Notes: generated by a model from the sequence alone, not told the origin. A stretch of 64,000 nt of DNA from a candidate division FCPU426 bacterium (GCA_030637655.1 DAOWGI010000092.1:26161-90160), one strand, 5' to 3'; positions 18,531 through 62,153 are shown, numbered from the stretch's first letter. Program-made: numbers and translations.

Positions 18531-18680
18531 GGGCGACCGCGAGGGTCGCCCCTACATTTTTCTTGGGCAAATCGTCCTTCTGCCAGGGCGCTGCTAGCTG
18601 CACCCCTACATTTTTCACGAGCCATACGTTGCAATGGGTCACGGACACACGGACGAATACAAGATTCGCCCCTACATATT
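18531..18680. repeat. cluster of three REP-like units each ending in CCCCTACAT(T)TT
   Basis: Units are gggcgaccgcgagggtcgcccctacattttt, ...ctgcacccctacattttt and ...ttcgcccctacatattt. They sit in the argG-argH intergenic region at irregular spacing. Confidence 0.7.
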
Positions 18681-19888
18681 TATTTGCGTCTTTTCAATCC
18701 CGCTCTTACCTTCATTGGCAATCCATACAGGGAAATAAAACCTGTGGCATCGGATTGTTGATACACATCATCTTCTCCAAAGGTAGCCAAGGCTTCGGAA
18801 AAAAGTGAATTTTCCGATCGCCGTCCCAGCACTGTGGCCAGACCACGATACAACTGCATGCGCACCTCTCCCGTAGCCGGCTCCATCACCTGATTCATGA
18901 AAGCATCCAAGCTCTCACGCAAATGAGTAAACCATTGACCATTGTAAACCAGGTCAGCGTATTTCAGCGCCAATTGATTCCGCACGTGCATGGTCTCACG
19001 ATCCAGGACCAGGCTGACCAACTCATGCACGGCGGCAACCAAAATGGTTCCGCCCGGAGTTTCATAAGCGCCGCGTGATTTCATGCCCACCAGACGGTTT
19101 TCCACCAAATCCGAACGTCCGATACCATGTTTCCCACCCAATTGGTTTAAACGCTGAATGATTTTCACGAGATCCATTTTTATACCATTGAGACTGACTG
19201 GTTTTCCGGCTCGAAAACCAATGGTAACCTGGCCCGGCTTGGCCGGCGCTTTTTGCGGATCTTGGGTGAGCATCCACACCGGCTTGTTGGGAGCAGCCCA
19301 AGGGTCCTCCAATTCACCACCCTCATGACTTATGTGCCATAAATTTCGGTCACGCGAATACAAATTCTTTAAGGACTGCGAGACCGGAACTTTTTTCTGC
19401 TTCGCGTAGCGCAAAGCATCTTCGCGCGAACGCAAATCCCAACGTGGATCACGCCAGGGTGCTACGACTTTCAAATTCGGCGCCAGCGCCTGAAAGGTCA
19501 ATTCAAAGCGAACCTGATCATTGCCTTTGCCGGTGCATCCGTGCGCTAAAGCATCGGCTCCCTCTCTTTTCGCAATCGCAACCTGGTGCTTGGCTATTAA
19601 TGGCCGCGCAATCGCGGTGCCCAGTAGATATTTATTCTCATACACGGCTCCGGATTTCAGCATAGGCAGAATGTAGTCTTCGGCAAATTCTTTTTTCAAA
19701 TCAAGCACATAACATTTTGACGCGCCGGTTTTCTTGGCTTTGGCCGGCAATCCTTTCAGTTCTTCTTCCTGTCCTACATCCGCGGCAAAAGCAATGACCT
19801 CGCAATGGTAATTATCTTTTAACCAAGGAATAATCACCGAGGTGTCCAAACCACCGGAATAGGCCAAAACAATTTTTTTAATTTTCAT
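18680..19888 (-). CDS. argG: argininosuccinate synthase
   Basis: N-terminal motif AYSGGLDTS with full-length ArgG homology and an ATG start. Confidence 0.95.
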   Translation of the reverse strand: MKIKKIVLAYSGGLDTSVIIPWLKDNYHCEVIAFAADVGQEEELKGLPAKAKKTGASKCYVLDLKKEFAEDYILPMLKSGAVYENKYLLGTAIARPLIAKHQVAIAKREGADALAHGCTGKGNDQVRFELTFQALAPNLKVVAPWRDPRWDLRSREDALRYAKQKKVPVSQSLKNLYSRDRNLWHISHEGGELEDPWAAPNKPVWMLTQDPQKAPAKPGQVTIGFRAGKPVSLNGIKMDLVKIIQRLNQLGGKHGIGRSDLVENRLVGMKSRGAYETPGGTILVAAVHELVSLVLDRETMHVRNQLALKYADLVYNGQWFTHLRESLDAFMNQVMEPATGEVRMQLYRGLATVLGRRSENSLFSEALATFGEDDVYQQSDATGFISLYGLPMKVRAGLKRRK

Positions 19889-19918
19889 GCTACCTACCTT
19901 CTTTCATACCTCTTGGTT

Positions 19919-19976
19919 GTAGGGGCACGGCATCCGACTTCGCTAAAGCGATGTCGGACAAGCATAATGCCCCTAC
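19919..19976. repeat. REP-like compound palindrome GTAGGGGCACGG...GCCCCTAC
   Basis: Sequence: gtaggggcacggcatccgacttcgctaaagcgatgtcggacaagcataatgcccctac. It lies between the GT2 gene stop and the argG start. Confidence 0.7.
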
Positions 19977-19978
19977 CT

Positions 19979-20689
19979 TCATCCAAAAATTCCATACCGC
20001 AAGATGCAGTACAAAGCCCGCAACGCATCTTTGGCCTGAATTTTCTTGCCTTCTTGATAGGTCCGGCCATGGTAGGAAATACCGACCTCATAAAAAATAC
20101 ATTTCTTCCGTGCCACTTTGATGGTCACCTCAGGTTCAAAACCAAAGCGTTTTTCTTTGAGTGGTATGTTCTGCAAAATTTCGCGGCGAAACATCTTGTA
20201 ACAAACTTCCATATCGGTCAGACAAAGATTGGCAAACATGTTGCACAACTGGGTTAGAAAACGATTGATCACATAATGCCAAAAAAATAGAACTCGCCGG
20301 CTTTTGGTAGTCAAAAAACGACTGCCGTACACTACATCCGCTTCACCCTTTGCGATGGGCAAAAGCAAATCCTGATAATCGACCGGATCGTATTCCAGAT
20401 CCGCATCCTGAATAATAATCACATCGTTTTTAGCGTGTCTAATACCCTCCTGCAACGCCGCCCCTTTGCCGCTGTTCTTGGGAAGACGATAGACCCTCAG
20501 GTCTTTGCCGGCCGCCGCCTTGAGCACTTCGGACGTGTTGTCGGTTGAGGCATCGTCCACTACAATTATCTCTTTGGGAATGGCAATGGCCCGGACCCGG
20601 CGCAGTATTTCAGCCATAGTTTTTTCTTCATTATAAACCGGAATAACCACTGACAGCGTCGGCCATTGCCTGGAATTTAAACCTGGCAT
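19979..20689 (-). CDS. family 2 glycosyltransferase (DPM1-like polyprenol-phosphate sugar synthase type)
   Basis: SVVIPVYNEE ... DDASTDNT ... QDADLEYDP are the GT2 DxD-region motifs. The track ORF starts at a GTG inside a REP element (20740). The ATG at 20689 (MPGLNSRQWPTLSVVIPVYNE) is preferred. Confidence 0.8.
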   Translation of the reverse strand: MPGLNSRQWPTLSVVIPVYNEEKTMAEILRRVRAIAIPKEIIVVDDASTDNTSEVLKAAAGKDLRVYRLPKNSGKGAALQEGIRHAKNDVIIIQDADLEYDPVDYQDLLLPIAKGEADVVYGSRFLTTKSRRVLFFWHYVINRFLTQLCNMFANLCLTDMEVCYKMFRREILQNIPLKEKRFGFEPEVTIKVARKKCIFYEVGISYHGRTYQEGKKIQAKDALRALYCILRYGIFG

Positions 20690-20732
20690 TAAATCATTCC
20701 TTTCGAACAGTTCTTCTATTGAACAATTTACC

Positions 20733-20755
20733 GGGCGCACTCAGTGCGCCCCTAC
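20733..20755. repeat. REP element, family A (gggcgcactcagtgcgcccctac)
   Basis: An 8-bp GC stem with loop tca, followed by the CTAC tetranucleotide. Identical units occur at 46920-46942 and 62131-62153. Further ccctacc-containing palindromes lie at 20775-20872 and overlap the argF stop. Confidence 0.8.
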
Positions 20756-20864
20756 ATAATACTTTTCTGCCGGGTTTCAAATGGGCGGACACAGGGGACC
20801 GCCTTTTACGGGCGAACATCCGCCTTCGTTCCTGCGGAACTATGGCGTGACAAGCAGTGGGTCC

Positions 20865-21845
20865 CTACCGGCCTAATAATAATTTCAAGATTGCTTTTTG
20901 GGCATGCAGGCGGTTTTCCGCTTGATCAAACACTATTGATTGTTCCCCGTCCATCACTTCATCAGTTACTTCTTGTCCGCGATGCGCCGGCAGACAGTGC
21001 ATAAATACCGCATCCGGAGCGGCATGTGACATCAGTTTTTCATTCACCTGATATTTTTTCAAGGCACGTACGCGCTGTGACTGCTCTTTCTCCTGGCCCA
21101 TGGAAACCCAAACATCCGTATATACTACATCCGCATGCGAGACCGCGCGATTTGGATCCATGGTCATGTACAAGGCTCCACCACTTTTACGCCGGTCATT
21201 TTCACTTAATTCGATGGTATGTTTGTCAATCTCGTATCCCAAGGGAGAAGCAATGGCTAATTCAATACCGGTTTTGGCTGCGCCAAAAATCAATGAACGT
21301 GCCACGTTATTACCGTCACCCACATATGCCACACGCAAGCGTTTCAATTTACCGAAACGCTCTTTTAATGTTAACAGGTCTGATAACACCTGACAGGGAT
21401 GCGCGTAATCAGTCAAAGCATTGATCACCGGAATCGAAGCGTCACGTGCCAATTCCACTATTTTCTTATGTGCGTCTGTGCGAATTATAATCCCGTTCAC
21501 ATACCGCGAGAGCACTCGGGCCGTGTCCGCGATAGTCTCGCCTCGTCCCAACTGTAAATCCCGGCCGGCCAGGTACAACATGGTACCACCCAATTGGTGC
21601 ATGGCGATTTCAAAGGATACGCGTGTTCGGGTTGAACTTTTCTCAAAAATAGCAGCCAATACTTTCCCTTTCAGCATCTGATCATGCTTGTTCTTTTTGG
21701 CGCTGTTTTTAAGTTCAGCCGCTGTTTTAAGAATCAGCTCAACATCACTCGCGCTCAATTGAGCAATAGTTAACAGGCTATCTACTGACATCTCTTTATT
21801 GGATACTTTTTTCACTGTGGTCTTTTTCTTCTTGGTCACTGGCAT
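20865..21845 (-). CDS. argF: ornithine carbamoyltransferase, with an 18-aa Lys-rich N-terminal extension
   Basis: STRTR and HCLPAHRGQEV motifs. The ATG at 21845 has a strong GGAGG SD at 5-nt spacing, which supports the extended form (MPVTKKKKTTVKKVSNKE...). The canonical start would be the ATG at 21791 (MSVDSLL). Confidence 0.9.
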   Translation of the reverse strand: MPVTKKKKTTVKKVSNKEMSVDSLLTIAQLSASDVELILKTAAELKNSAKKNKHDQMLKGKVLAAIFEKSSTRTRVSFEIAMHQLGGTMLYLAGRDLQLGRGETIADTARVLSRYVNGIIIRTDAHKKIVELARDASIPVINALTDYAHPCQVLSDLLTLKERFGKLKRLRVAYVGDGNNVARSLIFGAAKTGIELAIASPLGYEIDKHTIELSENDRRKSGGALYMTMDPNRAVSHADVVYTDVWVSMGQEKEQSQRVRALKKYQVNEKLMSHAAPDAVFMHCLPAHRGQEVTDEVMDGEQSIVFDQAENRLHAQKAILKLLLGR

Positions 21846-21865
21846 TTTCCCCTCCCCTTAAATGA

Positions 21866-23086
21866 CTACTGTTCTTTCAAAATCGCTTGCAAGACTTTTC
21901 TCATGATCAGCACGGCGTAATCCACTTCTTGTGCTGTTATGGTAAGCGCGGGTAAAAAGCGCAATACGTTGTCGGCAGTGCAATTGATCACCAAGCCCTG
22001 TTCCAAAGCGTTCCGAACCGCCGACGGACCGTGATCTTTGAGCTCCATACCCCACATCATACCAATTCCGCGCACTTCAATCACCAGCTGCTTAAATTCA
22101 CCGGCTAGTTGCCGCAATTGCCCGCCCAGATAGACTCCGGTAGTTTTAACTTTGTCCAGAAACCCTGTAGCAGTCAATTCTGTTAATAACGCATTCCCGC
22201 CGGCAGCAGCAACGGGATTCCCGCCAAAGGTTGAGCCATGATCTCCTACTGCCAAGGCAACAGCCACATCCCCCCGGGTCACTAAAGCAGAGAGTGGTAA
22301 GCCACCGCCCAAAGGTTTTCCCAACAAAAGCACATCCGGCACGACCTCAAAGTGTTCATAGGCATGCAGGCACCCGGTTCTACCCAAGCCGCATTGGATC
22401 TCATCAAAGATCAACAATAATTTGTTCCGGTCGCACAGATCCCGCAAATCTTGCATAAATTTCTTAGTGCCTTGATGGATTCCACCCTCGCCCTGAACAG
22501 GTTCAATCATAATCGCGCAAGTCTTGTTGGTAATTGCCGAAGCAGTGCCGGCAAAATTGTTCAAGGTTACATGTTTGAATCCCGGCAACATAGGATCAAT
22601 CCCTTGATGATATTTATCCTGCCCAGTGGCCGAGAGTGCGCCATAGGTTCTGCCGTGAAACGCGTCCCGAAAGGTAATTATTTCATATTGATTTTCCTGC
22701 GGTCTTTCTTTCCGGGCCCACTTCCTGGCTAATTTGATGGCCAATTCAACAATTTCCGCGCCACTATTTGAAAACAGCACCTTGTCTCCAAACGATTTCT
22801 CGACCAGTGCTTTGGCCAAGGCTACTTGAGATTCCAGGTAATAGAGATTTCCGGTATGCGCGCATTTTTCCAGTTGGGCTTGCATGGCTGCCTGCTGTTT
22901 TGGATGTCCGTACCCCAGGTTCATCACCGCATGCCCGGAAAAGAAATCCAAATATTCTTTTCCGTCCTTATCCCAAAGCCGGCTCCCGGTCCCGCGTTCC
23001 CATACCACCGGTTGCCGATTGAATGTTTTGGCAAAATACTTCGCTTCCGTCTCAATAATTTCCGTAGTGCTCAACTTCGTTTCCAC
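21866..23086 (-). CDS. argD: acetylornithine aminotransferase (class III PLP aminotransferase)
   Basis: GTG start with an AGGAGG SD. The PLP-lysine region DEIQCGLGRTG is present, with full-length homology. Confidence 0.9.
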   Translation of the reverse strand: METKLSTTEIIETEAKYFAKTFNRQPVVWERGTGSRLWDKDGKEYLDFFSGHAVMNLGYGHPKQQAAMQAQLEKCAHTGNLYYLESQVALAKALVEKSFGDKVLFSNSGAEIVELAIKLARKWARKERPQENQYEIITFRDAFHGRTYGALSATGQDKYHQGIDPMLPGFKHVTLNNFAGTASAITNKTCAIMIEPVQGEGGIHQGTKKFMQDLRDLCDRNKLLLIFDEIQCGLGRTGCLHAYEHFEVVPDVLLLGKPLGGGLPLSALVTRGDVAVALAVGDHGSTFGGNPVAAAGGNALLTELTATGFLDKVKTTGVYLGGQLRQLAGEFKQLVIEVRGIGMMWGMELKDHGPSAVRNALEQGLVINCTADNVLRFLPALTITAQEVDYAVLIMRKVLQAILKEQ

Positions 23087-23134
23087 CGGACCTTCGCCTC
23101 CTTAAAGCTACTGCCAAGGTGAGTGTTCTGCCTT

Positions 23135-24004
23135 TTACGCAGACGCTTTCACCATTTCGGTTCCTATCCCTTGATCTGTAAATATTTCCAGCAATAGGGC
23201 GTGCGCCACGCAGCCATTGATAATATGTGTCTTGTTCACTCCCTGATTTAAGGCTTTCTCACACGCTCGCACCTTGGGCAGCATGCCGCCCTGAATCACG
23301 TTTTTACTGATTAATTCCTCAATTTCAGTAATCTGCAGGGCGGAAAGCAAGGTAGTCTCATCCTTGGGATCTTTCATGATTCCCGGAACATCAGTCATGA
23401 GTATCAGTTTGTCGGCTTTTAAGGCAATTGCTATTGCTGCCGCCACATCATCAGCATTGTTGTTGTATGTTTGTCCCGCCGCGTCCACACCAATGGGCGC
23501 GATCACCGGAATGAATTTTTCCTGGTCCAGAATATCAATCACTTCCGGCGCAACCTTACATATCTCACCGACAAAACCCAGATCCACATCCGGCTCATTA
23601 TGTTTCCGGGCTGTCAGCAAACCACCGTCTTTGCCGGAAAGACCGACCGCTTGACCGCCATGCCAGTTGATGGCTGCCACAATCTCCTGGTTAACTTTCC
23701 CGACCAAGACCATTTCCGTTATTTCCATAGTTTCCTGGTCTGTGACCCGCCGTCCTTTGACAAACTCCACTTTTTTTCCCATCTTCTCCATGACCCGGGT
23801 AATTTCCGGTCCGCCGCCATGCACTATGACCGGTTTCATGCCAACGTATTTCATGAGTACCAGATCCTGCATAACCTTCTCTTTCAAATCAGCATCGGTC
23901 ATGGCCGCACCGCCGTACTTGACAACCACGGTTTTGCCGTAAAATGCTTTAATGTATGGCAGTGCTTCAATTAAAATATTTGCTCTGGAAATAAGTTCCT
24001 CCAT
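23135..24004 (-). CDS. argB: acetylglutamate kinase
   Basis: GKTVVVKYGGAAM...VIVHGGGPEI motifs. The track ORF begins at a TTG at 24073 and would overlap a REP palindrome. The ATG at 24004 (MEELISRANIL) is preferred. Confidence 0.9.
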   Translation of the reverse strand: MEELISRANILIEALPYIKAFYGKTVVVKYGGAAMTDADLKEKVMQDLVLMKYVGMKPVIVHGGGPEITRVMEKMGKKVEFVKGRRVTDQETMEITEMVLVGKVNQEIVAAINWHGGQAVGLSGKDGGLLTARKHNEPDVDLGFVGEICKVAPEVIDILDQEKFIPVIAPIGVDAAGQTYNNNADDVAAAIAIALKADKLILMTDVPGIMKDPKDETTLLSALQITEIEELISKNVIQGGMLPKVRACEKALNQGVNKTHIINGCVAHALLLEIFTDQGIGTEMVKASA

Positions 24005-24032
24005 GGCAATGTCTCCTGATACAAGTATAGTG

Positions 24033-24104
24033 TAGGGAACGGTCGCAACCGAAGGAAATCCCTTACTATTCAATAATCCTTCCGGTCGGGGGACCGTTCC
24101 CTAC
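24033..24104. repeat. REP-like long palindrome gtagggaacggtc ... gaccgttccctac
   Basis: 13-bp perfect inverted arms with GTAG/CTAC ends and an internal sub-palindrome. It lies in the hslU-argB intergenic region. Confidence 0.7.
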
Positions 24105-24124
24105 GGGAGGTATCAACCATTCGT

Positions 24125-26067: not shown

Positions 26068-26175
26068 AACCAATCTGCCTTTCTCTTTTTTAATCGTCAT
26101 TTTATGGGTTGTCATTCCCCAACCGGAAATGAATATTGAATGCCGGTACACTTTAGGCAGTCCGCATGCTTTCTT

Positions 26176-26251
26176 TTGTCATTCCCGAGGGTTTAATCGG
26201 GAATCTGGTTTTTTAAACCGTATCCCCGATACAAGCATTCGGGGATGACAA
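26176..26251. repeat. MITE-like 74-bp palindromic element, copy 2, plus partial copy at 26302-26334 and REP-B fragment at 26283-26299
   Basis: The 75 bp differ from the copy at 8113-8186 by 1-2 nt. The half copy reads atccccgacaaaatcattcggggatgacaaac. Confidence 0.8.
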
Positions 26252-26354
26252 CTTAAAAAATACCCTTTCCGCAACAGAAACTAATTAAACGCCCCTACCA
26301 CATCCCCGACAAAATCATTCGGGGATGACAAACATGAATTGTGACAGAGCCTCT

Positions 26355-37536: not shown

Positions 37537-37790
37537 GCAATCCTCTGGGCAGAGTGCTCTATGGTTTTTTCCCTACCCCCAAAACATATAGAGGGAAATG
37601 GTGTATGTTAAGTTAAATTATGTTATCAAGAAAACCAGACCCACGCAACCACCTTTTTTCTCCCGCCAATACACCACTTATTACTACAGTATCTCTAGGT
37701 TCGACGAAAACTAACATATCTATAGGATAGAATTAATACTCCTGACCGAATCGTGGCCCCTCAACTCACCCCTAGTATTCTTTTTTCCGA

Positions 37791-41623: not shown

Positions 41624-41662
41624 AAGTCGTGCTCACTTTCCAGTATGAATGTGGATATCCAG

Positions 41663-41690
41663 TAGGGGCGCGATTAATCGCGCCCTTACC
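41663..41690. repeat. REP element, family B (gtaggggcgcgattaatcgcgcccttacc)
   Basis: A GC stem with an ATTAAT loop and a GTAG...CTTACC frame. Related units are 49879-49906 (tagagacgcgattaatcgcgtctctacc) and 46896-46917 (gcgtttaattaaacgcccttac). Confidence 0.75.
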
Positions 41691-41695: not shown

Positions 41696-44035
41696 TCATT
41701 CCAAAATATGCGTGGTTAAAAACACAACCAATTCAACCTTATTCTTCGTGCTTACATTGCTCCGAAATAAAAAGCCCAGCAAGGGGATATCTCCCAGCAA
41801 AGGAACTTTAGACTCCCGCATACTTTCTTCATCCCGTACCATACCACCGATCACAATGGTTTCGCCGTCATCCACTAACATTTGCGTGGTCGCAGATCGT
41901 GTACTGGTAATAGGCGGCGAGCCTGTTCCCACCACTGTGGCTACTTCCAGGGTCATAGGATTCAGCAGGACTTGACCCTCTTTGGTGATCTGAGGCTTGA
42001 CTGTCAGACTTATCGGCAGTTCCAGATAATTTACCACATTGGAGACAACACCATTGCTGACATTGCTGGTTGCATAAGGAATGTTCTGACTGGCTTTTAA
42101 AACAGCACTCTTATTGTTCAAAGTGGCAATTCGCGGATTTGAGATGGTATTCACCTTACCCTTGGATTCAAGCGCTGATAAAGTCGCATTCAAATCAATA
42201 CCCTCTTGCAAGGTACCTATAATAATCTGTCCGACTTGTCCTACAGCATCCGGATTGGTACTGGCTGTGAATTGAGGGTCTATGCTCGAACTGATGCTTC
42301 GAGCAGTCCAATTGACACCTAAATCCCGCTGATTGGAGCGTGAGACCTCAACAATCCTGGCTTCAATCATCACTTGCTGCGCTTTAGTATCCAAACTGCG
42401 TATTATTTTAGCGATATGGGTGACCTTTCCCGGGATATCATTAACCACCAGCGAATTTTCGGAATTATTCTCTTGTATGGATCCCAAAGAGGATAGCATG
42501 GGTTGAATCGCGGGCAAGATTTTTTCGGCCTGTGAATAACTCAATACAAAGGTTCGGGTAACCAAACGCCGTTCCACATCCATGCGACGAATGACCTCGC
42601 GCACACGAACCATATCGCTGGGAATGGCGGAAACAATAATGCGATTAGCCGTGGATTCCAATACCACTTTGCCTTTTGCTCCATCTGTCAGAATGGCTTC
42701 TATGGAATCTTTTACATTGGAATCTTTTACTTCCATATTTTTCATAGTAAAGACTCGCGTCTCCACCGGAAATTCAGAAGCCAAACCAATACGCAGGGTA
42801 TTGCCGCTTACCACATAGGCCATTTGGCGGGAACGCAAAATGAAATCCAAAACCGTATTGAACGCCTGTTCCTTAATCGAGAGTGTGACCAGAGCTTGCG
42901 ATTCCTCGATTTTTTCCATACCCGGAGTCAGGACCATGTCAAAACCGGCCTCTGCGGCCAGGGCACGCAACACAGCTCTTAAATCAGCGTTTTGCAAATC
43001 CACGGAAATACGCGAGGTAATATTACCGCGTTTACCAGTGGCTTGAACAGAACCCGGATTATTGAATTCAACTAAAATTTGATTTTGATCTTTAAAAACC
43101 AAATAGGGTGTGGTTTGCGATAACCGCAGGGCAATTTGCACAACCGGTTCTCCCATCACTGTTTTTTGGGCCGCCTTAACACTGCGCACCACACCAATGG
43201 GCAAACGAGGAATCCGTCCATGCCAGGTCAAGTCCGCGCCATGGATTTTGAGAACAAACTTCTTTCCCTGATTGGTTCGTTCCACACGATACCGGACTTG
43301 TCCATTGGTGGTAACGGTAATCCGTGTTTTTTCCCCAAAATCCTGCGCAGTCACATCCACCACTTGATAACCGACTATATCGGTAGTCATTATGGATTTG
43401 CTGTAATGGCTGTTTTTCTTGCTTGCTTGGGGTTTGGCAATAACTGCCTCGCTGCGGGCAGAACCAAATTTCCCGGCATACCGTGCCGGCAAACGCAAGG
43501 TAATACCGCGGCGATGGGTTTCCCGAATCCATTTAACACTCTCATCCAAATCCAAAACCACCCAAACGTTTTCGTCATGCTGCGCCGAACGAATTCTTTT
43601 CAAGGGTGTTTGATTTACCGACAGTCGTGTCGTCTTCCAGGTTAGTAAGGTGTCGTGTACTTTTAAAAGCATCCGGTTTGGTTTGGACAGATAGCTCATG
43701 CTGCTGCTGACTTTCTGCGAGGTAGTAATTTTCACCACCGGCAAACCGTTTTCCGTCTCTACCTGAACCTTAGTTAAGCGCGCGGACCAGGTTGGTTCGG
43801 TGTCGGCTTCAGCTTCCGCCCTGTCTTCAAATCCGCCTTCGTACGGTTCACTCGCGTCGAACTCCCCGGCGGCCGAGGCATCGGCCACCTGTTCAATGCC
43901 AACACCAATAGTACCCTCGGTAGTCACATCATCCAGAGCCCATACCCTAACCGGTGATTGACCTAACCAAAGCACGCTCAACGCTACTATCACGAAGTTC
44001 AGGAATTGTCTCCCCTGCCTTCCAGTTGTATGCAT
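41696..44035 (-). CDS. pilQ: type IV pilus secretin PilQ
   Basis: Signal peptide. C-terminal secretin domain (VPLLGDIPLLGFLFRS...VFLT). Confidence 0.9.
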   Translation of the reverse strand: MHTTGRQGRQFLNFVIVALSVLWLGQSPVRVWALDDVTTEGTIGVGIEQVADASAAGEFDASEPYEGGFEDRAEAEADTEPTWSARLTKVQVETENGLPVVKITTSQKVSSSMSYLSKPNRMLLKVHDTLLTWKTTRLSVNQTPLKRIRSAQHDENVWVVLDLDESVKWIRETHRRGITLRLPARYAGKFGSARSEAVIAKPQASKKNSHYSKSIMTTDIVGYQVVDVTAQDFGEKTRITVTTNGQVRYRVERTNQGKKFVLKIHGADLTWHGRIPRLPIGVVRSVKAAQKTVMGEPVVQIALRLSQTTPYLVFKDQNQILVEFNNPGSVQATGKRGNITSRISVDLQNADLRAVLRALAAEAGFDMVLTPGMEKIEESQALVTLSIKEQAFNTVLDFILRSRQMAYVVSGNTLRIGLASEFPVETRVFTMKNMEVKDSNVKDSIEAILTDGAKGKVVLESTANRIIVSAIPSDMVRVREVIRRMDVERRLVTRTFVLSYSQAEKILPAIQPMLSSLGSIQENNSENSLVVNDIPGKVTHIAKIIRSLDTKAQQVMIEARIVEVSRSNQRDLGVNWTARSISSSIDPQFTASTNPDAVGQVGQIIIGTLQEGIDLNATLSALESKGKVNTISNPRIATLNNKSAVLKASQNIPYATSNVSNGVVSNVVNYLELPISLTVKPQITKEGQVLLNPMTLEVATVVGTGSPPITSTRSATTQMLVDDGETIVIGGMVRDEESMRESKVPLLGDIPLLGFLFRSNVSTKNKVELVVFLTTHILE

Positions 44036-46722: not shown

Positions 46723-46895
46723 CCGCGCCTCCTTGTTCTTCTACAACGCAGGTCCCGGTAGCAAAAATTGGGACTGCTGAAAAACCCGAAAAATCCCCTT
46801 TTCTAATTCTAGAGCACATACTTCATGATTTTCTGCCTAGCCCTCGAATAACCTAACACGTACTGGAACTTTTTTCAGCTTCCCAAACGGTAAGA

Positions 46896-46975
46896 GCGTT
46901 TAATTAAACGCCCTTACACGGGCGCACTCAGTGCGCCCCTACAATATCCCCGATTAAAGTCTTCGGGTATGACAA
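46896..46975. repeat. composite repeat: REP-B variant + REP-A unit + half MITE arm
   Basis: gcgtttaattaaacgcccttac is followed by gggcgcactcagtgcgcccctac. The arm atccccgattaaagtcttcgggtatgacaa is homologous to the right half of the 74-bp MITE-like element. Confidence 0.75.
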
Positions 46976-47140
46976 CCCTTTCAGAAAATAACCTTTCCGT
47001 AATAGAAACCAAATCTGCTCCGGAAAATTTTCGACCTTGTACTTTTTATAAGTTTTTTGTTAAAGCTTATTAACGTTCTGCTTTTTTCTTATTATACATC
47101 TTTTTTTGGATTATAAAGACGAATCTCAGAAAAATCAAGA

Positions 47141-47213: not shown

Positions 47214-47708
47214 CTACTGATACCCATACGTTGTGTAAGATATTCCGCTCGTATCAGTGCACGAACTATTGACCCAAATTCGTCCGGTGTTGGATTGCTC
47301 AGGTCCATCATAACGCCATCCAGTACCATAAGTGTTTGGGCATCCCAGGCTGGGTTCATCGGTGAATGATTTATTCGTCACTTCATTTCCTGCCGGACTT
47401 TTTTCAGGATCAGCCGGATAGGTAACCAAGACCTTTGGCATTGCCGGCAAATAATCGCCAAAACCATACCCTGGTGTTTTATCGGAGACATCCAAGGTTG
47501 TGGGCCAGACACCTTCATGATCACCATAATAAATCGAGATGGCTGCTTTGATGGCACTAATATTGGATTTGGTGGCAGCCTCCCGGGATTTTTCCTGCCA
47601 TTCCTGAATATACGGATAGGCCAACGCGGCCAAAATACCTAAGATCGCCACAAACATGGCCCACTCCAAATACGTAAACCCCTGTTGCAATTTAAATACG
47701 TTCCGCAT
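47214..47708 (-). CDS. pilA: type IV pilin (prepilin with class III signal peptide)
   Basis: MRNVFKLQQG / FTYLEWAMFVAILGILAALA shows a 10-aa leader, a G|F cleavage site, Glu at +5 and a hydrophobic helix. AGGAG SD. Confidence 0.8.
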   Translation of the reverse strand: MRNVFKLQQGFTYLEWAMFVAILGILAALAYPYIQEWQEKSREAATKSNISAIKAAISIYYGDHEGVWPTTLDVSDKTPGYGFGDYLPAMPKVLVTYPADPEKSPAGNEVTNKSFTDEPSLGCPNTYGTGWRYDGPEQSNTGRIWVNSSCTDTSGISYTTYGYQ

Positions 47709-47747
47709 ACCTGCTTACTCCTTCTCTTTTTCTATTTTACCTGTCTG

Positions 47748-47774
47748 TAGGGGCACGGCATGCCGTGCCCCTAC
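47748..47774. repeat. REP element, perfect 27/28-bp palindrome gtaggggcacggcatgccgtgcccctac
   Basis: Seen directly. Both the GTAG and CTAC ends are present. It lies between pilT and the pilin gene. Confidence 0.8.
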
Positions 47775-47822
47775 AGATGATGATTATAATTATTTGTGGC
47801 AATTGAAATAAATGTTGTGTCC

Positions 47823-49815: not shown

Positions 49816-49878
49816 AGCGTTTTCCTCATTTTCCGAGTATATTTGTCGGCATTATATCAAACCTCTGGATAAAAACCT

Positions 49879-49906
49879 TAGAGACGCGATTAATCGCGTC
49901 TCTACC
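49879..49906. repeat. REP element, family B (tagagacgcgattaatcgcgtctctacc)
   Basis: Perfect palindrome with an ATTAAT centre and a CTACC tail, immediately downstream of rsmE. Confidence 0.75.
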
Positions 49907-50695: not shown

Positions 50696-50707
50696 AGAAT
50701 ATCATTT

Positions 50708-55090: not shown

Positions 55091-55140
55091 AATGCTTACC
55101 CATCCTTTCTTTTGCTTGTACTTGTATCAAATTTACCGGC

Positions 55141-55806: not shown

Positions 55807-55835
55807 ATGCCTTACCTCCGCTTACCCAATTTCAC

Positions 55836-56867
55836 TTACAACCTAACCCGAACCAGCGCTTCTGCCGTATCCTGCACCAAAGCAATTACTTTAGGATACG
55901 CCATTCGTTGGGGTCCAATAATACCAATACGCATAGTTTGCCGTCCATTCAATGCTACGTCCTCAGTAACCAAAGAGAGTGCCGGCAACGGCTCTTTCCA
56001 AGGAGCCTCGGCAATAACCACGCGAACCCCGGAGCGCTCAATACCGGGGATGGAAAAAAAACGAATTAATTCATCTCCCTGATCCAGCATTGCCACCAAT
56101 TGCCGCATGGCAGAAATATTATTAAACTCCGGTTGCAGAATCAAATTGGAGGCACCCTCAATTGCCAGTTCCTCCTGCGCCGGAGCAGACAAATTCACAC
56201 TCGCCCAATGGAGCGCTTGCCGCAGCAGCCCCCACAGCCGGCAATCCAGACCCGACCAATCAGCCCGTGCCAGCAGTTCCAGTTCTGAAGCGGTTTTACC
56301 TTGGCCATGCCGATTAACCCAGTGATTGACCTTTTTCACCAACTGCAATCCCAGGGTTGCTTCCAGAGTAAATACCTGATGAAATTCTTCTCCGGAAGTA
56401 GTCTGTACAATAAGCAACATCCGCTGCGACATCAAGCTAATTAATTGTATTCGGGCCAACCGTTCTTCACTGCCGCCGAGCAACCAAGTCACTGCCAGCA
56501 ATTGCGAGGTCACAGCCAGGACTTTGGCAGCCAAACTCACAATTTTATCTGTTTCCTGCGCTTCTTGCAATATCTCAAATCGTTTTTTTCGCTGCACCCG
56601 GTTCCAGCTTGGTTGGCTTCCCAGTAAACGTTCCACCAAATACCGATACGCTTTGACGGTTGGCACTTTCCCGGCTGATGTATAGGGACGATTTAAAAAT
56701 CCTCCGGCTTCCAAGCGAGCTAATACATTACGCACGGTAGCAGAACTCCACTTAAATCCGTAGGCGGCGCACAATTGCTGTGAACTCACCGGTTCTGCCG
56801 TAGCAATGTAATGCTCAATAACCGCAACCAAAACAGTCTGTTCTCTGGCAGATAAAATCGAAATCAT
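55836..56867 (-). CDS. hrcA: heat-inducible transcriptional repressor HrcA
   Basis: The N-terminal winged-helix region (LSAREQTVLVAVIEHYIATAEPVSSQQL) is characteristic of HrcA. The track ORF begins at a TTG at 56969. The ATG at 56867 is preferred. Confidence 0.85.
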   Translation of the reverse strand: MISILSAREQTVLVAVIEHYIATAEPVSSQQLCAAYGFKWSSATVRNVLARLEAGGFLNRPYTSAGKVPTVKAYRYLVERLLGSQPSWNRVQRKKRFEILQEAQETDKIVSLAAKVLAVTSQLLAVTWLLGGSEERLARIQLISLMSQRMLLIVQTTSGEEFHQVFTLEATLGLQLVKKVNHWVNRHGQGKTASELELLARADWSGLDCRLWGLLRQALHWASVNLSAPAQEELAIEGASNLILQPEFNNISAMRQLVAMLDQGDELIRFFSIPGIERSGVRVVIAEAPWKEPLPALSLVTEDVALNGRQTMRIGIIGPQRMAYPKVIALVQDTAEALVRVRL

Positions 56868-56907
56868 ACTTCCCTCTATTCCTTCAGGGGCGGCCTGCCT
56901 ATGAATT

Positions 56908-58497
56908 TTATGAGTAAGATTTATATATTTGATAATCAATATCGGGAAATATATTATCTTTGTACTCAATATCCGACAGCCAATCCAAATCCAGACAATG
57001 GTGTTTTAAATCGTTGTACAACCGGGTAAAACGTCCAATATGATCACGGGTCCGCTTGATAGCATACTCCACCATGGTTCCGGTTTTCATAATAAAGGCC
57101 CAATCCGAGCTTTGCGCCAACAGCAATTCGCGAGCCGCTTGATTAAGGCCCCGGCGTTCAAGGTAGGTTGGTTCCCTGAAAATATCCGCCAATTCAATCA
57201 TGTGTTCCGCCATCTTATGCAGATGGCGGTAGATCCAATCATTGCTGTTGTCCAGCCATTGTTCATGGTAGCCTTTATATCCCCAGGAGGAGGCGCAAGG
57301 ACGCACTACCTGCAATTTGGGGTTTTCCGTCATATATTCCGTGGCTGTCACGGTCCGAATCTCATCCTGATCATAATGCAGTTTCCGGAAAAGAAATCCC
57401 AGAAACTCCGGTCCTTCGTACCACCAGTGTCCGTACAGTTCCGCGTCGTAAGGAGATACGATTAAAGGATTTTTTCCCATTATCCCCTTTAAATATTCAA
57501 TCTGTTTTTGCCGGTTAAACATAAAGTTTTCAGCATGCGAAGCAGCTCTATCCCGGGCAACTCCCGGATCATATGGCGCTTTATGGTCCGAATCTCCGGT
57601 GATACGGTAATACTTAATACCCGTCGGAATTCTAAAACCATCTCCATGAATGTACGGCCGTATGTACTCGTACTCCAAATCAAAACCAATGTCACGATAA
57701 AACTCCCGGTAGGCAAAGTCTCCGGGATACCCTTCTTTGGAACTCCAAACCTGTTTGGATGATTCCACATCACGTCCGAACGCGGCTGTCCCGCACCGGG
57801 TATATACCGGCGCGTAGATTCCGTATTTGGGTCGCGGAGTACCGTGAAATATACCGTGCGTATCCGTGTAAAAAAAACGAATTCCCTGATCGCGTAATAA
57901 TTCATCCACCCCTGATTCAAAACCGCATTCCGGCAGCCAAATTCCGCGCGGCCGCGCACCCAGGCAACGCTCGTGAGTCTGAGCAGCCACAATAATCTGA
58001 GCCCGTTGGGCAATACGATTCACCATCAAAGGTAAATATCCATGCGTGGCACCGCACGTAATAATTTCCAAATAGCCCAAATCCTGAAATTTGCGGAATG
58101 CGGCAGCCAAATTACGGTGATATTTTTCTTCAAAAAGCCAACGGGCGTGACGAAACCGGTGTAAATACATCCGCGCTGTGTCGTTGAATTCCGGCTGCCA
58201 CCGTGTTCGTTCCACCTCTTTTTCCGCTAATTCAATTAATTTGGAAATATGGGACAAGTACCGTTCCTGCAGCAACTGATCCGTAAACATGGTGAGCAAA
58301 GGCGGTGTCAAGGACATAGTCAGGCGAAAGTAAACACCATCATTTACCAACTGCTCACACATATCAATCAGCGGAATATAAGTCTCGGTAATGGCTTCAT
58401 AAAACCAATCTTCTTCTAAAAAGTCATCATGTTCCGGATGTCGCACATACGGCAAGTGGGCGTGCAACACTATCATTAAATAGCCGTTTTCAGCCAT
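56908..58497 (-). CDS. glycoside hydrolase family 57 1,4-alpha-glucan branching enzyme
   Basis: GH57 hallmarks are present: HAHLPYVRHPE, WLPECGF and SPYDAELYGHWW. ATG start. Confidence 0.9.
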   Translation of the reverse strand: MAENGYLMIVLHAHLPYVRHPEHDDFLEEDWFYEAITETYIPLIDMCEQLVNDGVYFRLTMSLTPPLLTMFTDQLLQERYLSHISKLIELAEKEVERTRWQPEFNDTARMYLHRFRHARWLFEEKYHRNLAAAFRKFQDLGYLEIITCGATHGYLPLMVNRIAQRAQIIVAAQTHERCLGARPRGIWLPECGFESGVDELLRDQGIRFFYTDTHGIFHGTPRPKYGIYAPVYTRCGTAAFGRDVESSKQVWSSKEGYPGDFAYREFYRDIGFDLEYEYIRPYIHGDGFRIPTGIKYYRITGDSDHKAPYDPGVARDRAASHAENFMFNRQKQIEYLKGIMGKNPLIVSPYDAELYGHWWYEGPEFLGFLFRKLHYDQDEIRTVTATEYMTENPKLQVVRPCASSWGYKGYHEQWLDNSNDWIYRHLHKMAEHMIELADIFREPTYLERRGLNQAARELLLAQSSDWAFIMKTGTMVEYAIKRTRDHIGRFTRLYNDLKHHCLDLDWLSDIEYKDNIFPDIDYQIYKSYS

Positions 58498-58512
58498 ACT
58501 AACCTCTGAAAA

Positions 58513-59610
58513 TCATTCGGTATGTTTTTCAACAACAGGCGTGACTTTCCGTTCCTGTGTGCCCTCGACATTAACTGCCTGCACAACAATAGTCTGTTTG
58601 CCGTCAGGCAGAGCGTAACGGACGGAAAAAGTTCCATCCTGGTTTAAGCGTAGTGGTTGGCCTTGAACAGTAACTGACGCGTCCGGTTCTGTTGCTCCGT
58701 AGACAATGAGTTCAGTATTGGCCGCCAACCAGAAATCCCCTGCTTTAGCCGGTTTTGGCCGGCCGCCTTCAGAACCCATGCTCGCAAACCCTCCGGAGGT
58801 GACATCTGCCCGAACACGTTTAAGCATATATTTAGTAATGGCTTCGGACGAGCGGCCCAATTCAGCTGCCCCGGCAGTCTGATATAATTTGTCAAAGGTT
58901 TGGTCCACCACCATCCATTCCTCATCCACTACCGGAGAGACCGAATCTCTGGGTGTGGTGACCACATTGGAACGCGCCAAAACAATAAAATGACCATCCG
59001 GATATACCAGACCCAAATCCACGCAATACGCGCGATCCGCTGCCCACACATTGATGTACCAATTGTTGGCTGCGGCAGAAATCTCAATATCCATGTTACG
59101 ATGCGCATTATTGCCGTCAAATTCAATATCCGTAATATCATACACACGCAAGATTAATTTGGCGGCCTTGGCTGGGATTTCTCTATGTATTTCTTCATGA
59201 CGATCCGAAGACAAATCCCAGTAAATATAGCACCAGTACGGATCGCGTATCATGAGTACACAGCGATTGTCTCCGTATTGGTCTTGCCAAGGATACTGCT
59301 CTTCAGCCACCGGCGGATGTGGTGCCATAGAATGCGCGACCGGCATTGGGGTACTCGGTGAAGCCGCAGCTTGTAGAGCTGGTGCAGACAGCACTTCTTT
59401 TTTCGGCTTAACTGCCTTTTTCGCGATTTTGGTGACAAGTGTTGATTTCACTTTGCTACTGTCAGCTTTAGACACGATTTTCTTGGTAACCGTTTTTTTG
59501 GCTGACGCGGAAGATTTTTTTACTATCTTTTTGATAACTGCTTTTTTAACAGTTTTCTTTGTTACAGCTGCTTTGGTATTTTTTTTAGTCGCCTTTTTCT
59601 TTTTAGTCAT
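58513..59610 (-). CDS. DUF4912-family protein with N-terminal Lys-rich (histone H1-like) tail
   Basis: A ~90-aa KKxxKKxVxKK low-complexity N-terminus. The C-terminal domain resembles the DUF4912 proteins that are commonly encoded next to GH57 branching enzymes. The stop lies 13 nt from the GH57 ATG. Confidence 0.6.
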   Translation of the reverse strand: MTKKKKATKKNTKAAVTKKTVKKAVIKKIVKKSSASAKKTVTKKIVSKADSSKVKSTLVTKIAKKAVKPKKEVLSAPALQAAASPSTPMPVAHSMAPHPPVAEEQYPWQDQYGDNRCVLMIRDPYWCYIYWDLSSDRHEEIHREIPAKAAKLILRVYDITDIEFDGNNAHRNMDIEISAAANNWYINVWAADRAYCVDLGLVYPDGHFIVLARSNVVTTPRDSVSPVVDEEWMVVDQTFDKLYQTAGAAELGRSSEAITKYMLKRVRADVTSGGFASMGSEGGRPKPAKAGDFWLAANTELIVYGATEPDASVTVQGQPLRLNQDGTFSVRYALPDGKQTIVVQAVNVEGTQERKVTPVVEKHTE

Positions 59611-59722
59611 AACGCAGCCTCCTACAATTTAAAATTCGCCAGGACATAGTTTGACTTCTTAACTAATACCAATTATATATAAAGACAATTCGTTTTAAAT
59701 CAGCCTTATAAATTGTACATTT

Positions 59723-59995
59723 TTACTGTACAATCTCTTTTAATTCTTTCCCCGGACGGAATTTCGGAGCTTTTTTAGCCGGTACTTGAACCGATTCTCC
59801 GGTCTTGGGGTTTCTTGCTATACGTGCTTTTTTCTCTTTTACTACAAATGTACCCAATCCTGCTACAGATACTTTTTGTCCGGCTTTAAGTGCGTTTTGA
59901 ATTGTTGAAATTAATTTTTCCAACATTTTCTCTATTTCGCGCTTGGGCAGACCCAATCCTTCGGCAACTTTGTCAATTAATTCAACTTTTGTCAT
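59723..59995 (-). CDS. hup: DNA-binding protein HU
   Basis: A 90-aa protein with the HU/IHF fold signature (GLGTFVVKEKKARIARNPKTGESV). AGGAGG SD. Confidence 0.9.
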   Translation of the reverse strand: MTKVELIDKVAEGLGLPKREIEKMLEKLISTIQNALKAGQKVSVAGLGTFVVKEKKARIARNPKTGESVQVPAKKAPKFRPGKELKEIVQ

Positions 59996-60032
59996 GCAAG
60001 ACCTCCTCGTCGGAAATTAGTGCATTTTTGAG

Positions 60033-60062
60033 TAAACTACCATGTTTGAACAGAAATCGTCA
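60033..60062 (-). promoter_or_regulatory. putative sigma70 promoter of hup (-35 TTGACG, 18-nt spacer, extended -10 TGgTAGTTT) with AT-rich upstream tract 60100-60230
   Basis: A sequence match only. An extremely AT-rich UP-like region lies upstream. Confidence 0.3.
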
Positions 60063-60240
60063 AGCTGAAAATCAAAAATTTTGCCTATAAAATAATCAGA
60101 TTCTCAAACTCCACTCTTTGTCGCACTGCCTGAATATAACTCAAAGTTATATTATTTAATTATATTTTAATAAAATTTTTATTTTACCTGGAATAGCAGC
60201 GATCGGCGGACAGGCGACGAAAACAAAAAAATCCTTATAC

Positions 60241-61395
60241 TTACAAGATTTCCCGAAAAACCAGATTGGATAAAAGCATCCCTTGGTCAGTCAAACGCAA
60301 AGTGTTGTTCGTAGCTAACAGGAGTCCTCGGGCTGCCATTTCCCTGATAGGCCGGGTAAAATCCTGAGCCCAGGTTTTTTCATAATAGTCCTGAATCTCT
60401 TGCGTATTCACACCAGAAGTCAGACGCAATCCCACAATAAGCTGCTCAGCAATTTTAGCGCGTCCCTGCAACTGTTCTTCGCCGCTTTGCGCTGAGTGGT
60501 TGGCCTCTATTTTTTCCATATAGTGTTTAACTTGATTCTCATTCCATTTGCGGACTCCTTGTTCAAAAGAATGCGCCGCAGCTCCTAATCCCAAATAATC
60601 CTGGTTTTTCCAATAGATTGTGTTGTGTTGGCATTCGAAGCCCGGTTTTGAAAAACTGCACAGTTCATACTGGAAAAATCCGTTTTGCGCCAGATACTCC
60701 TTGGCCCAGGTATACATCTCAGCAGCAAGATCATCATCCAACAGTGGCAGGGTACCAGTTCGCACCTTAGCTTCCAAGGGAGTCTTTTCTTCCAAACTCA
60801 AAGCATACATGGAAATATGCTCAGGATTCCAGGCCAAAAGAGTATGCAGATCCTGCTGAAATTCCAGAAGTGTCTGTCCGGGCAGACCGTAAATCAAATC
60901 GCAGGAAAGATTCTCAAAATTGTTAGCACGAATATCCTTAACACTTTGCGCAGCCTGCTCTGCCGTATGCGAGCGTCCCAGCAACTGGAGATACTTGTCT
61001 TGCGTGCTCTGCACACCCAGGGCAATTCGATTGATGCCCAGCTGCCGAAATTGGGTTAATTTGTTTTGATTCACTGTGGCTGGATTGGCTTCCAGCGTCA
61101 TCTCTATTCCTTTTTCCAAGTGCATGCGCCGGGCCAAAACACCCAACACACTGGACAACTGTTCAGGCTCAGCCAGAGAAGGTGTCCCGCCTCCAAAATA
61201 GAGAGTCCGTGCCATACCGTGCGCACGTTGCTGGATTTCCTTGTTCAACAGAAAAAAATAATGTTGTATCTCATCTGAAGCTGCGGCCGGTTGCGAGGCA
61301 AAATCACAATACAGACATTTCTTTTGGCAAAATGGGATGTGAACATACACCCCATACGCTTCCCGCGCCGTGGACTTTATTTGATTGATCGCCAT
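60241..61395 (-). CDS. hemW: radical SAM heme chaperone HemW (HemN-like, oxygen-independent coproporphyrinogen oxidase family)
   Basis: CxxxCxxC radical-SAM motif (HIPFCQKKCLYCDF) and an HemN C-terminal domain. The ATG at 61395 is preferred over the track TTG at 61410. Confidence 0.85.
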   Translation of the reverse strand: MAINQIKSTAREAYGVYVHIPFCQKKCLYCDFASQPAAASDEIQHYFFLLNKEIQQRAHGMARTLYFGGGTPSLAEPEQLSSVLGVLARRMHLEKGIEMTLEANPATVNQNKLTQFRQLGINRIALGVQSTQDKYLQLLGRSHTAEQAAQSVKDIRANNFENLSCDLIYGLPGQTLLEFQQDLHTLLAWNPEHISMYALSLEEKTPLEAKVRTGTLPLLDDDLAAEMYTWAKEYLAQNGFFQYELCSFSKPGFECQHNTIYWKNQDYLGLGAAAHSFEQGVRKWNENQVKHYMEKIEANHSAQSGEEQLQGRAKIAEQLIVGLRLTSGVNTQEIQDYYEKTWAQDFTRPIREMAARGLLLATNNTLRLTDQGMLLSNLVFREIL

Positions 61396-62057
61396 CGCGT
61401 GACAGGCCAATAAATAACCCAGGCTTTGCCTTTAATTAATTTGCGCGGCAAAAACCCCCAAAAACGCGAGTCTGCCGAAAAATCACGGTTGTCTCCCATC
61501 ATAAAAAAATGCTCTGCCGGTATAGTAACCGGACCGTAGTTATCCCGCGGACTAATTTCCGGCGGCAAAACGCGCATGTCCCGAAACCCGGCATAACCGT
61601 CATTTTGGGGCTCATTATTCACATACAAAATTTTATTTTTTACTTCAATGACATCTCCAGGTACACCCACGCAGCGTTTGATAAAATCGCGGCGCGGATT
61701 TTCCGGATATTTAAAGACCAGAATATCTCCTTGCCTGGGATCTCGAATTTTAATGATCCTTTTGTCGGTAAACGGAACCTGGAGACCATACACTAATTTG
61801 TTGACCAAGAGATGATCACCAATAAGCAGGGTGTTTTCCATGGATCCTGAGGGGATTTTGAAGGCTTGTAGAAAAATGGTCCGGATGATCAAAGCCAGAA
61901 TAATGGCAATAAAACCGGAATCTACGTATTCCATGTAAATATTGGTCTTGGGTAACTTGACAAGATAACGCAGAATGACTTCTGCCAAAGTCAGGCCCAC
62001 CAATAGTCCGTAAAAAATCAGTTCCGCTGCTTCAGCGGTTTTAATCCATTCAATCAT
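61377..62057 (-). CDS. lepB: signal peptidase I
   Basis: Catalytic Ser (PSGSMENTL) and Lys box (GDNRDFSADSRFWG). Confidence 0.9.
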   Translation of the reverse strand: MIEWIKTAEAAELIFYGLLVGLTLAEVILRYLVKLPKTNIYMEYVDSGFIAIILALIIRTIFLQAFKIPSGSMENTLLIGDHLLVNKLVYGLQVPFTDKRIIKIRDPRQGDILVFKYPENPRRDFIKRCVGVPGDVIEVKNKILYVNNEPQNDGYAGFRDMRVLPPEISPRDNYGPVTIPAEHFFMMGDNRDFSADSRFWGFLPRKLIKGKAWVIYWPVTRWRSIK

Positions 62058-62096
62058 AATGTTTTTACCTTTCTTTAATTATTAAAATAATTGCCG

Positions 62097-62153
62097 GGCG
62101 ACCGCAAGGATCGCCCCTACGGTTAATCACGGGCGCACTCAGTGCGCCCCTAC
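62097..62153. repeat. tandem REP elements: family C (gggcgaccgcaaggatcgcccctac) + family A (gggcgcactcagtgcgcccctac)
   Basis: Seen directly. The terminal CTA of family A forms the lepA TAG stop codon (62150-62152). Confidence 0.8.

Follow-up and report, generated by a model that had tools for sequence, protein, structure and literature searches.

GTAG-tagged hairpin repeats in the intergenic DNA of a candidate division FCPU426 bacterium are probably REP elements of the RAYT-associated kind

We analysed a 64,000-nucleotide stretch of DNA from a candidate division FCPU426 bacterium (GCA_030637655.1, DAOWGI010000092.1:26161-90160), here called the window, that carries short GC-rich hairpins between its genes. 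Fifteen of these hairpins, headed by GTAG(G)GGC, were found between 18.5 and 62.2 kb, spread over 10 intergenic gaps. They are very probably repetitive extragenic palindromes (REPs) of the GTAG-tagged superfamily, of the kind associated with REP-associated tyrosine transposases (RAYTs), and would be copied as non-autonomous DNA elements. We read them in this way because their architecture is that of published REPs, because an identical 23-nt unit flanks a Y1/RAYT-like transposase gene in an Acidobacteriota metagenome-assembled genome (MAG; locus L045), and because related hairpins lie at the ends of homologous transposases on four more contigs. Apart from the occurrence of the 23-mer in several other phyla, the elements are ordinary REPs. 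The original prediction, made from the sequence alone, had called their organisation exactly that of REPs and bacterial interspersed mosaic elements (BIMEs). The REP half of this was borne out, but the BIME half was not, as inverted pairs do not dominate; the elements are singletons, direct head-to-tail tandems and self-symmetric palindromes.

On the gene-sense (minus) strand, a unit begins with 5'-GTAG, directly joined to a GC-rich stem (GGGCG being its first bases in nearly all cases), and continues with a loop and the complementary arm. Units are 23-28 nt long, with stems of 8-9 bp and loops of 2-5 nt. In the asymmetric form (23-25 nt; families A and C), GTAG is joined to a stem of 8 bp with a loop of 3-5 nt. 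Symmetric units are 28-nt palindromes built from the tag, a 9-bp stem, a 2-nt loop, the 9-bp stem again and the inverted tag; four such 28-mers were found (at 41662, 46890, 47747 and 49878). Two long hairpins (19919-19976, 58 nt, and 24032-24104, 73 nt) have GTAGGG...CCCTAC termini. GTAA takes the place of GTAG at 41689 and at 46890-46917. Fold z-scores against shuffled sequences ranged from -2.9 to -7.6. Several hairpin families had been proposed, and variants of the inner stem and loop do exist, but nearly all stems share one frame, GTAG-GGGCR...YGCCC, with the variation falling in the inner 3-4 bp and the loop. The elements, in order along the window, are as follows.

18531-18555, minus strand: family C REP GTAGGGGCGACCCTCGCGGTCGCCC with a perfect 8-bp stem and 5-nt loop; third of three head-to-tail copies, in the argG-argH gap.
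18586-18609, minus strand: degenerate REP GTAGGGGTGCAGCTAGCAGCGCCC with a single G.T pair and a single mismatch; the central tandem copy, with the same 5' flank, GAAAAAT, as its neighbour.
18651-18675, minus strand: REP GTAGGGGCGAATCTTGTATTCGTCC, whose GTAG strand has a single G.T wobble; 4 nt past the argG stop.
19919-19976, no strand assigned: 58-nt hairpin with termini GTAGGGGCA...TGCCCCTAC and GTAG outward on both strands (minimum free energy [MFE] -37.4 kcal/mol, z = -7.1); lies between the GT2 gene and argG, and its left arm matches the 47747 palindrome.
20733-20755, minus strand: family A REP GTAGGGGCGCACTGAGTGCGCCC, copy 1 of 3, with an 8-bp stem and 3-nt loop.
20859-20872, minus strand: doubtful member GCCGGTAGGGACCC, with a tag-like head but no convincing hairpin (z = -0.48); its TAG is the argF stop (20865-20867).
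24032-24104, no strand assigned: 73-nt hairpin with termini GTAGGGAACGGTC...GACCGTTCCCTAC in the hslU-argB gap (MFE -39.1 kcal/mol, z = -5.3).
26283-26298, minus strand: truncated REP GTAGGGGCGTTTAATT, the 5' half of a 46890-type palindrome; abuts an unrelated ATCCCCGA...TCGGGGAT hairpin repeat.
41662-41689, no strand assigned: 28-nt symmetric REP GTAGGGGCGCGATTAATCGCGCCCTTAC with a 9-bp stem and 2-nt loop, GTAG on the plus strand and GTAA on the minus strand; 6 nt past the stop of a secretin gene, with an orthologous copy in relatives (L198, L199).
46890-46917, no strand assigned: variant symmetric REP GTAAGAGCGTTTAATTAAACGCCCTTAC of 28 nt, tagged GTAA on either strand.
46920-46942, minus strand: family A REP, copy 2 of 3, head-to-tail with the 46890 element; abuts a ATCCCCGA hairpin repeat (46941-46978).
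47747-47774, no strand assigned: perfect 28-nt palindrome GTAGGGGCACGGCATGCCGTGCCCCTAC; pairing reaches 47744-47777 (z = -7.6).
49878-49905, minus strand: 28-nt variant GTAGAGACGCGATTAATCGCGTCTCTAA, the sole element with a U-tract next to it on the sense strand (terminator-like).
62096-62120, minus strand: family C variant REP GTAGGGGCGATCCTTGCGGTCGCCC, whose GTAG strand has a single T.G wobble; lies second in a head-to-tail pair in the lepA-lepB gap.
62131-62153, minus strand: family A REP, copy 3 of 3; the lepA stop (62150-62152) is formed by the TAG in its GTAG.

The hairpins listed in the original prediction were real for the most part, with some overstatement. Family A was present in three identical copies (20733, 46920 and 62131), family C read as claimed at 18531-18555 and 62096-62120, and the ATTAAT-centred family was found at 41662-41689 and 49878-49905, with TTTAATTAAA relatives at 46890-46917 and, truncated, at 26283-26298. 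The perfect palindrome reported at 47748 is there (47747-47774), and it extends to 34 nt. On the other hand, 37565-37590 (GGGGGTAGGGAAAAAA) forms no hairpin and does not belong to the elements. Of the 20733-20872 locus, only the two ends are relevant, with the family A copy at one and GTAGGGACCC, at the argF stop, at the other; from 20756 to 20872, the sequence folds no better than its shuffles. Nor do elements occupy nearly every intergenic gap, as had been claimed: about 10 of about 21 gaps of at least 39 nt between 18.5 and 62.2 kb carry one, and none was found in the window from 4.5 to 18.5 kb.

The GTAG frame before these hairpins is non-random. GTAGGGG was counted 13 times on both strands compared to 4.5 +/- 2.0 in dinucleotide shuffles, none of which reached 13; all 13 sites are either intergenic or coincide with a stop codon. 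Three identical copies of the family A 23-mer (GGGCGCACTCAGTGCGCCCCTAC) were found where 0 were expected. In a census of the tetranucleotides directly 5' of GC-rich hairpins, GTAG ranked first of 256: it was seen 9 times, the average tag 0.72 times, and in first-order Markov simulations the same count averaged 0.07 and never exceeded 2. As an outside control, we used 767 kb of unrelated loci from a metagenome scan with ArgG (relatives of at most 63% identity, from other phyla), and no GTAGGGGCG hairpin was found in them. Rfam had no match in the window at gathering thresholds. Two further variants, including the stem variant GTAGGGGCGGGTTCCGAACCCGCCC, were counted just past the right end of the window (L001/L002); the family therefore continues beyond the 64 kb.

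Copies at multi-copy loci (18531-18675, 46890-46942 and 62096-62153) are arranged head-to-tail, and the three at 18531-18675 are spaced 54 and 66 nt apart. Among copies with one non-Watson-Crick pair, the GTAG strand has G.T in 8 and A.C in 1 (one-sided binomial P of about 0.02). This imbalance suggests that the hairpin matters on the GTAG strand, either as single-stranded DNA or as RNA.

The G+C content of the window is about 47%, essentially all genes from 4.5 to 64 kb are on the minus strand, and plus-strand GC skew is negative throughout. The window LepA has the same sequence as that of MAG GCA_023139775.1, and among named organisms its nearest relatives, with 80-83% identity, are candidate division FCPU426. 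In all asymmetric copies, GTAG is found on the gene-sense strand, and copies sit 3' of genes, a few to a few dozen nucleotides past the stop codons. The gene order at the densest cluster is xerC-hslV-hslU-argB-argD-argF-GT2-argG-argH, which places several elements between genes of one arg cluster. In two of the 15 elements, the GTAG overlaps a stop codon, as had been noticed: the lepA stop lies inside a family A GTAG, and the argF stop lies inside GGTAGGGACCC. In two relatives that lack REPs, lepA stops at the corresponding codon, so the REP insertion left the length of LepA unaltered.

The family A 23-mer was searched for in 185,579 representative genomes; the matches listed comprised at least 100 stretches. 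Among these, most were in two Acidobacteriota MAGs, with at least 81 and at least 19 exact copies in the loci fetched, and single occurrences were found in Vicinamibacteria, Desulfuromonadaceae and Ignavibacteria contigs (60-467 kb). At the DNA level, no resemblance to the window was seen in these loci. In L045, an open reading frame (ORF) at 1099-1656 on the minus strand matched Pfam Y1_Tnp with 24 bits (cut-off, 23), and its sole NCBIfam match, at E = 4e-17 and under the equivalog cut-off, was NF047646, the model for REP-associated tyrosine transposases. Its product has an HUH-like motif, NHVHGI, and a tyrosine motif, YHEHVIR. Two direct copies of GTAGGGGCGCAC(T/C)GAGTGCGCCC precede this ORF and an inverted GGGCGTACTCAGTACGCCCCTAC follows it. 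RAYT genes are flanked by inverted REPs, and the layout in L045 is the arrangement that defines them (PMC2817692).

The L045 protein had 3264 homologues at E < 1e-5, several of them named RayT by JGI. Homologues in L108 and L109/L110 (about 47% identical) have GTAGGGGCGCAC...GTGCGCCC hairpins at their ends. In L194 (Chloroflexota) the homologue ends in GTAGGGGCGACCGGCCGGTCGCCCCTAC, whose stem GGGCGACC is the family C stem of the window, and in L195 (Zixibacteria) it has GTAGGGGCGGACC... hairpins at its ends. No such hairpin was found at the ends of the homologue in L196 (Bacteroidota). The data from L045, L108, L109/L110, L194 and L195 indicate that the GTAGGGGCG frame accompanies one broad clade of RAYT-like transposases. 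Stem variants in an Acidobacteriota MAG are compensatory, with GCAC/GTGC becoming GTAC/GTAC.

Some further features of these loci were observed. In PW8 Acidobacteriota loci (for example, L045 1650-1900), the family A hairpin makes up the 3' portion of a longer, roughly 100-nt repeat (CTCCCCTG...TTTTTTGCAACCCACG...GTAGGGGCGCAC...), and the hairpins of the PW8 Acidobacteriota MAG cluster 55-115 nt past stop codons rather than directly behind them. In L195 (1160-1500), an N-terminal RAYT fragment, truncated and interrupted by an internal stop, is found a short way upstream of the full-length RAYT gene; immediately past the HUH motif, the frame of this fragment leads into a pair of GTAG hairpins. 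A scan of viral contigs found the exact 23-mer only once, at L193 166-188 (IMGVR_UViG_3300009826_000139, 9.8 kb, predicted viral); carriage of the REP by phage is not supported by this lone occurrence. Two proteins, P0081 and P0036, had been guessed from homologue source labels to be the RAYT of the window genome, but both come from other samples.

Comparison with relatives gave evidence of both gain or loss and retention. One JGI contig belongs to a relative with an 86% identical LepA; along 37,087 bp, it shares synteny with the window at about 33-64 kb. We found no elements in those 37,087 bp, compared to 7 in the matching part of the window. In a closer relative (secretin 77% identical; L198, L199), a REP occupies the orthologous site 3' of the secretin gene with the same flanks, reading GTAGGGGCGTGATTAATCACGCCCCTAC where the window has GTAAGGGCGCGATTAATCGCGCCCCTAC. 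The alignment of the two contains a compensatory change of C-G to T-A (GCGAT/ATCGC in the window, GTGAT/ATCAC in the relative). Taken together, the absence in one relative and the copy retained in the other suggest that the family was gained after one split (or lost in the 86%-LepA relative) and that at least one copy has been kept since a later split. The family appears to be a lineage-specific gain or to have been lost in that relative. The original prediction had held the elements to be old enough to have been fixed at gene ends. This applies to the 41662-41689 locus only, with its ortholog in the 77%-secretin relative; the 86%-LepA relative is without elements and the family A copies are identical to one another. 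The gap at 46.7-47.2 kb, when aligned to the relative, was too diverged for insertion boundaries. Compared to its counterpart in the relative, the secretin gene of the window has 7 extra codons (window 41696-41730, L199 2325-2365); the TAG stop of the relative is TTG in the window, where the ORF ends 6 nt before the REP.

The identical 23-mer was found, among the matches listed, in MAGs of Acidobacteriota, Desulfuromonadaceae and Ignavibacteria as well as in FCPU426; in Chloroflexota and Zixibacteria MAGs, homologous transposases are flanked by GTAGGGGCG hairpins that differ in their inner stems. These data allow more than one scenario. The identity across phyla may be due to horizontal transfer of the system or to strong conservation within an old RAYT clade. 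We tentatively suggest, as a possibility that is open to considerable doubt, that one REP/RAYT lineage (the GTAGGGGCG...CGCCC hairpin) moves horizontally between distant phyla, and that the FCPU426 lineage of the window acquired the system after its split from the 86%-LepA relative.

If the elements are REPs, their spread could, by analogy with REPs that have been studied, have occurred as follows. A RAYT (a Y1 HUH transposase), encoded elsewhere in the genome or formerly so, would bind the folded single-stranded GTAG strand, use GTAG as its recognition and guide motif, cut nearby, and rejoin. Such cutting and rejoining would seed new copies, which would accumulate in non-coding DNA. The GTAG strand is the G-rich strand and may be the lagging-strand template; a preference for that template would match the IS200/IS605 relatives of these transposases. 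Elements behind genes would be transcribed as stable 3' hairpins lacking U-tracts, including those within the arg operon. Any effect at the RNA level would most likely be protection of the mRNA 3' end, or a partial barrier or read-through control within operons, rather than full termination. We also considered GTAG as an insertion target, comparable to TTAC for IS608, with TAG stops attracting insertions. This was rejected, since GTAG in published systems is the element's own guide and recognition motif (PMC8266576); it is also disfavoured by the 5' flanks of the elements, which share no motif.

Several observations weigh against the identification as RAYT-associated REPs. Inverted pairs, the BIME or REPIN (inverted REP doublet) form, are not dominant, and only 19919-19976 and 24032-24104 are long hairpins with inverted termini; head-to-tail tandems are common here, whereas the literature has them as rare. 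Copy number per variant is low in the window (at most 3). The RAYT-like proteins scored 60-63 bits against NF047646, where the equivalog cut-off is 80, and a sequence search with one of them (P0001) found no solved structure. A hidden Markov model (HMM) of 120 RAYT homologues found no RAYT gene among all ORFs of at least 40 amino acids in the window, in agreement with the original prediction. Finally, the sense-strand orientation of the copies can be attributed to neither transcription nor replication, since all window genes are co-directional.

In an alternative scenario, a RAYT-REP system entered the lineage, spread, and lost its transposase, leaving immobile relics that were kept where they were harmless or useful as RNA hairpins. 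No RAYT gene was found in the 64-kb window, nor in about 5 kb beyond it. Degenerate or truncated copies are present (18586, 26283, 49878 and 46890), and the ortholog at the secretin site, with its compensatory change, implies long residence. However, the three family A copies are identical at 23 of 23 positions and two of them share 26 nt, which suggests recent copying. RAYTs are typically single-copy (PMC5581495), so absence from 64 kb says little. We regard the relic scenario as unlikely. A conventional IS200/IS605 origin, in which the units would be the ends or miniature derivatives (palindrome-associated or miniature inverted-repeat transposable elements, PATE/MITE) of insertion sequences with TnpA and TnpB rather than part of a domesticated RAYT system, would be in keeping with the match of the associated protein to Pfam Y1_Tnp, described as IS200-like, and with the scores below the RAYT equivalog cut-off. 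Against this, the transposase genes in L045, L108, L109, L194 and L195 stand alone with no TnpB neighbour, the RAYT model is the only NCBIfam match of their proteins, and the units are single 23-28-nt hairpins with no paired left and right ends around a spacer. This origin seems to us hardly credible.

The hairpins could also be terminators or attenuators selected by the host, with GTAG recurring from the chance overlap of TAG stops and G-rich stem feet. Elements do lie just 3' of stop codons on the sense strand, and the element at 49904-49879 has a U-tract and was scored as terminator-like; 18531-18551 was terminator-like as well, on the antisense strand only. However, 14 of the 15 elements have no sense-strand U-tract, and terminator-like sites in the window were at shuffle level (16 compared to 13.2, and 10 compared to 11.5). 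Several elements lie within one arg cluster (argF-GT2-argG-argH), and canonical terminators with a hairpin and T-run are present elsewhere, such as 3' of the gene at 47214-47708. Chance overlap with stop codons accounts poorly for a tag that meets one in just 2 of 15 cases, and convergence would not put an identical 23-mer in unrelated phyla beside a transposase gene. Termination as the origin of these elements is thus quite improbable, and RAYT-associated REPs are still the explanation we favour.

These elements add REPs to candidate phylum FCPU426, which has no cultured members; no published description of REPs in FCPU426 was found in the literature searched. They also provide a small, clean case of REP evolution, with absence from a syntenic relative and one ortholog retained with a compensatory stem change. 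The same 23-nt REP and the GTAGGGGCG frame recur with RAYT-like transposases across phyla, and this, if horizontal, bears on how "domesticated" transposase systems persist. Horizontal spread, if true, would contradict the prevailing view of REPIN-RAYT systems as strictly vertical, lineage-specific residents. For annotation, the hairpins account for false ORF starts and for short ORFs at the ends of genes in MAGs of this kind.

Other repeats were observed in the window. An 85-nt repeat of two hairpins (TTGTCATTCCCGAGGGTTTAATCGGGAATC... and ATCCCCGATACAAGCATTCGGGGATGACAA) occurs at 8112-8196 and 26176-26260 with 95% identity. Its second hairpin occurs alone at 26297-26334 and 46941-46978, and at both places it abuts a GTAG element (TCGGGGATGTG next to GTAGGGGCG, and TCGGGGATATT next to GTAGGGGCG). 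A MITE-like element of about 200 nt at 9103-9319 has a terminal inverted repeat (GCCTGTCGGACTT / AAGTCCGACAGGC) and encloses two CCCCCTTT..AAAGGGGG hairpins. The first 4000 nt have a G+C content of 38%, compared to about 47% elsewhere, and may be horizontally acquired; their minus strand has an apparent coding sequence, running off the left end, for a repeat-rich protein with YD-type motifs that suggest the RHS/YD family.

Di Nocera et al. (2013) described 24 REP families in more than 80 species and sorted them into GTAG and CGTC superfamilies (PMC3733652). In their survey, GTAG REPs are mostly 3' of ORFs, their TAG often supplies stop codons, several REP types coexist per genome, and G-T stem pairs are taken to hint at a role in RNA. 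The elements described here share with that superfamily the terminal GTAG, stems of 6-13 bp and loops of 2-3 nt, as well as the location 3' of ORFs, TAG stops taken from the tag, G-T pairs in stems and coexisting types. As here, some families of the superfamily are common to distant organisms. Head-to-tail dimers are absent or rare in the survey, whereas three multi-copy loci here are head-to-tail; FCPU426 was not met in the sections consulted, and Acidobacteria only via transposase genes.

Our elements have in common with the REP/BIME and RayT (YafM) system of Escherichia coli a GTAG-headed extragenic palindrome and, probably, its recognition by a Y1 transposase on one DNA strand. E. coli REPs lie in operons and act there as an mRNA 3' hairpin. 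Unlike the elements here, they are longer, have a required bulge, and form BIMEs of alternating orientation. The match between E. coli RayT and the Acidobacteriota homologue was at just E = 9e-4. The REPINs of Pseudomonas fluorescens, as treated by Bertels and Rainey in 2011, are reportedly inverted REP doublets with a spacer. Like those REPINs, the elements here are short palindromic repeats of a type replicated by a single-copy RAYT, with a probably long residence in the lineage, but the REPIN form is approached only by 19919-19976 and 24032-24104. REPIN-RAYT systems are described as mostly inherited vertically (PMC5581495); the 23-mer, in contrast, is shared across phyla and missing from a close relative.

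The closest counterpart in architecture is the group-3 REP of Stenotrophomonas maltophilia, which has 23 nt, a perfect 8-bp stem and a 3-nt loop, with GTAG as guide and recognition motif (PMC8266576). Family A is an exact fit to this REP (SMAG/REPSm; PMC8266576, PMC2817692), being 23 nt long with GTAG, a perfect 8-bp stem and a 3-nt loop. The host here is a member of candidate phylum FCPU426 rather than a gammaproteobacterium, the stem is GGGCG..., and inverted dimers are outweighed by head-to-tail tandems and singletons. Transposases associated with the element, seen in other genomes only, are distant from the curated RAYT model. As in REPtrons (group-3 REP/RAYT systems), several stem variants occur per genome, stem changes are compensatory, and inverted copies flank the transposase gene in other genomes that carry the same element.

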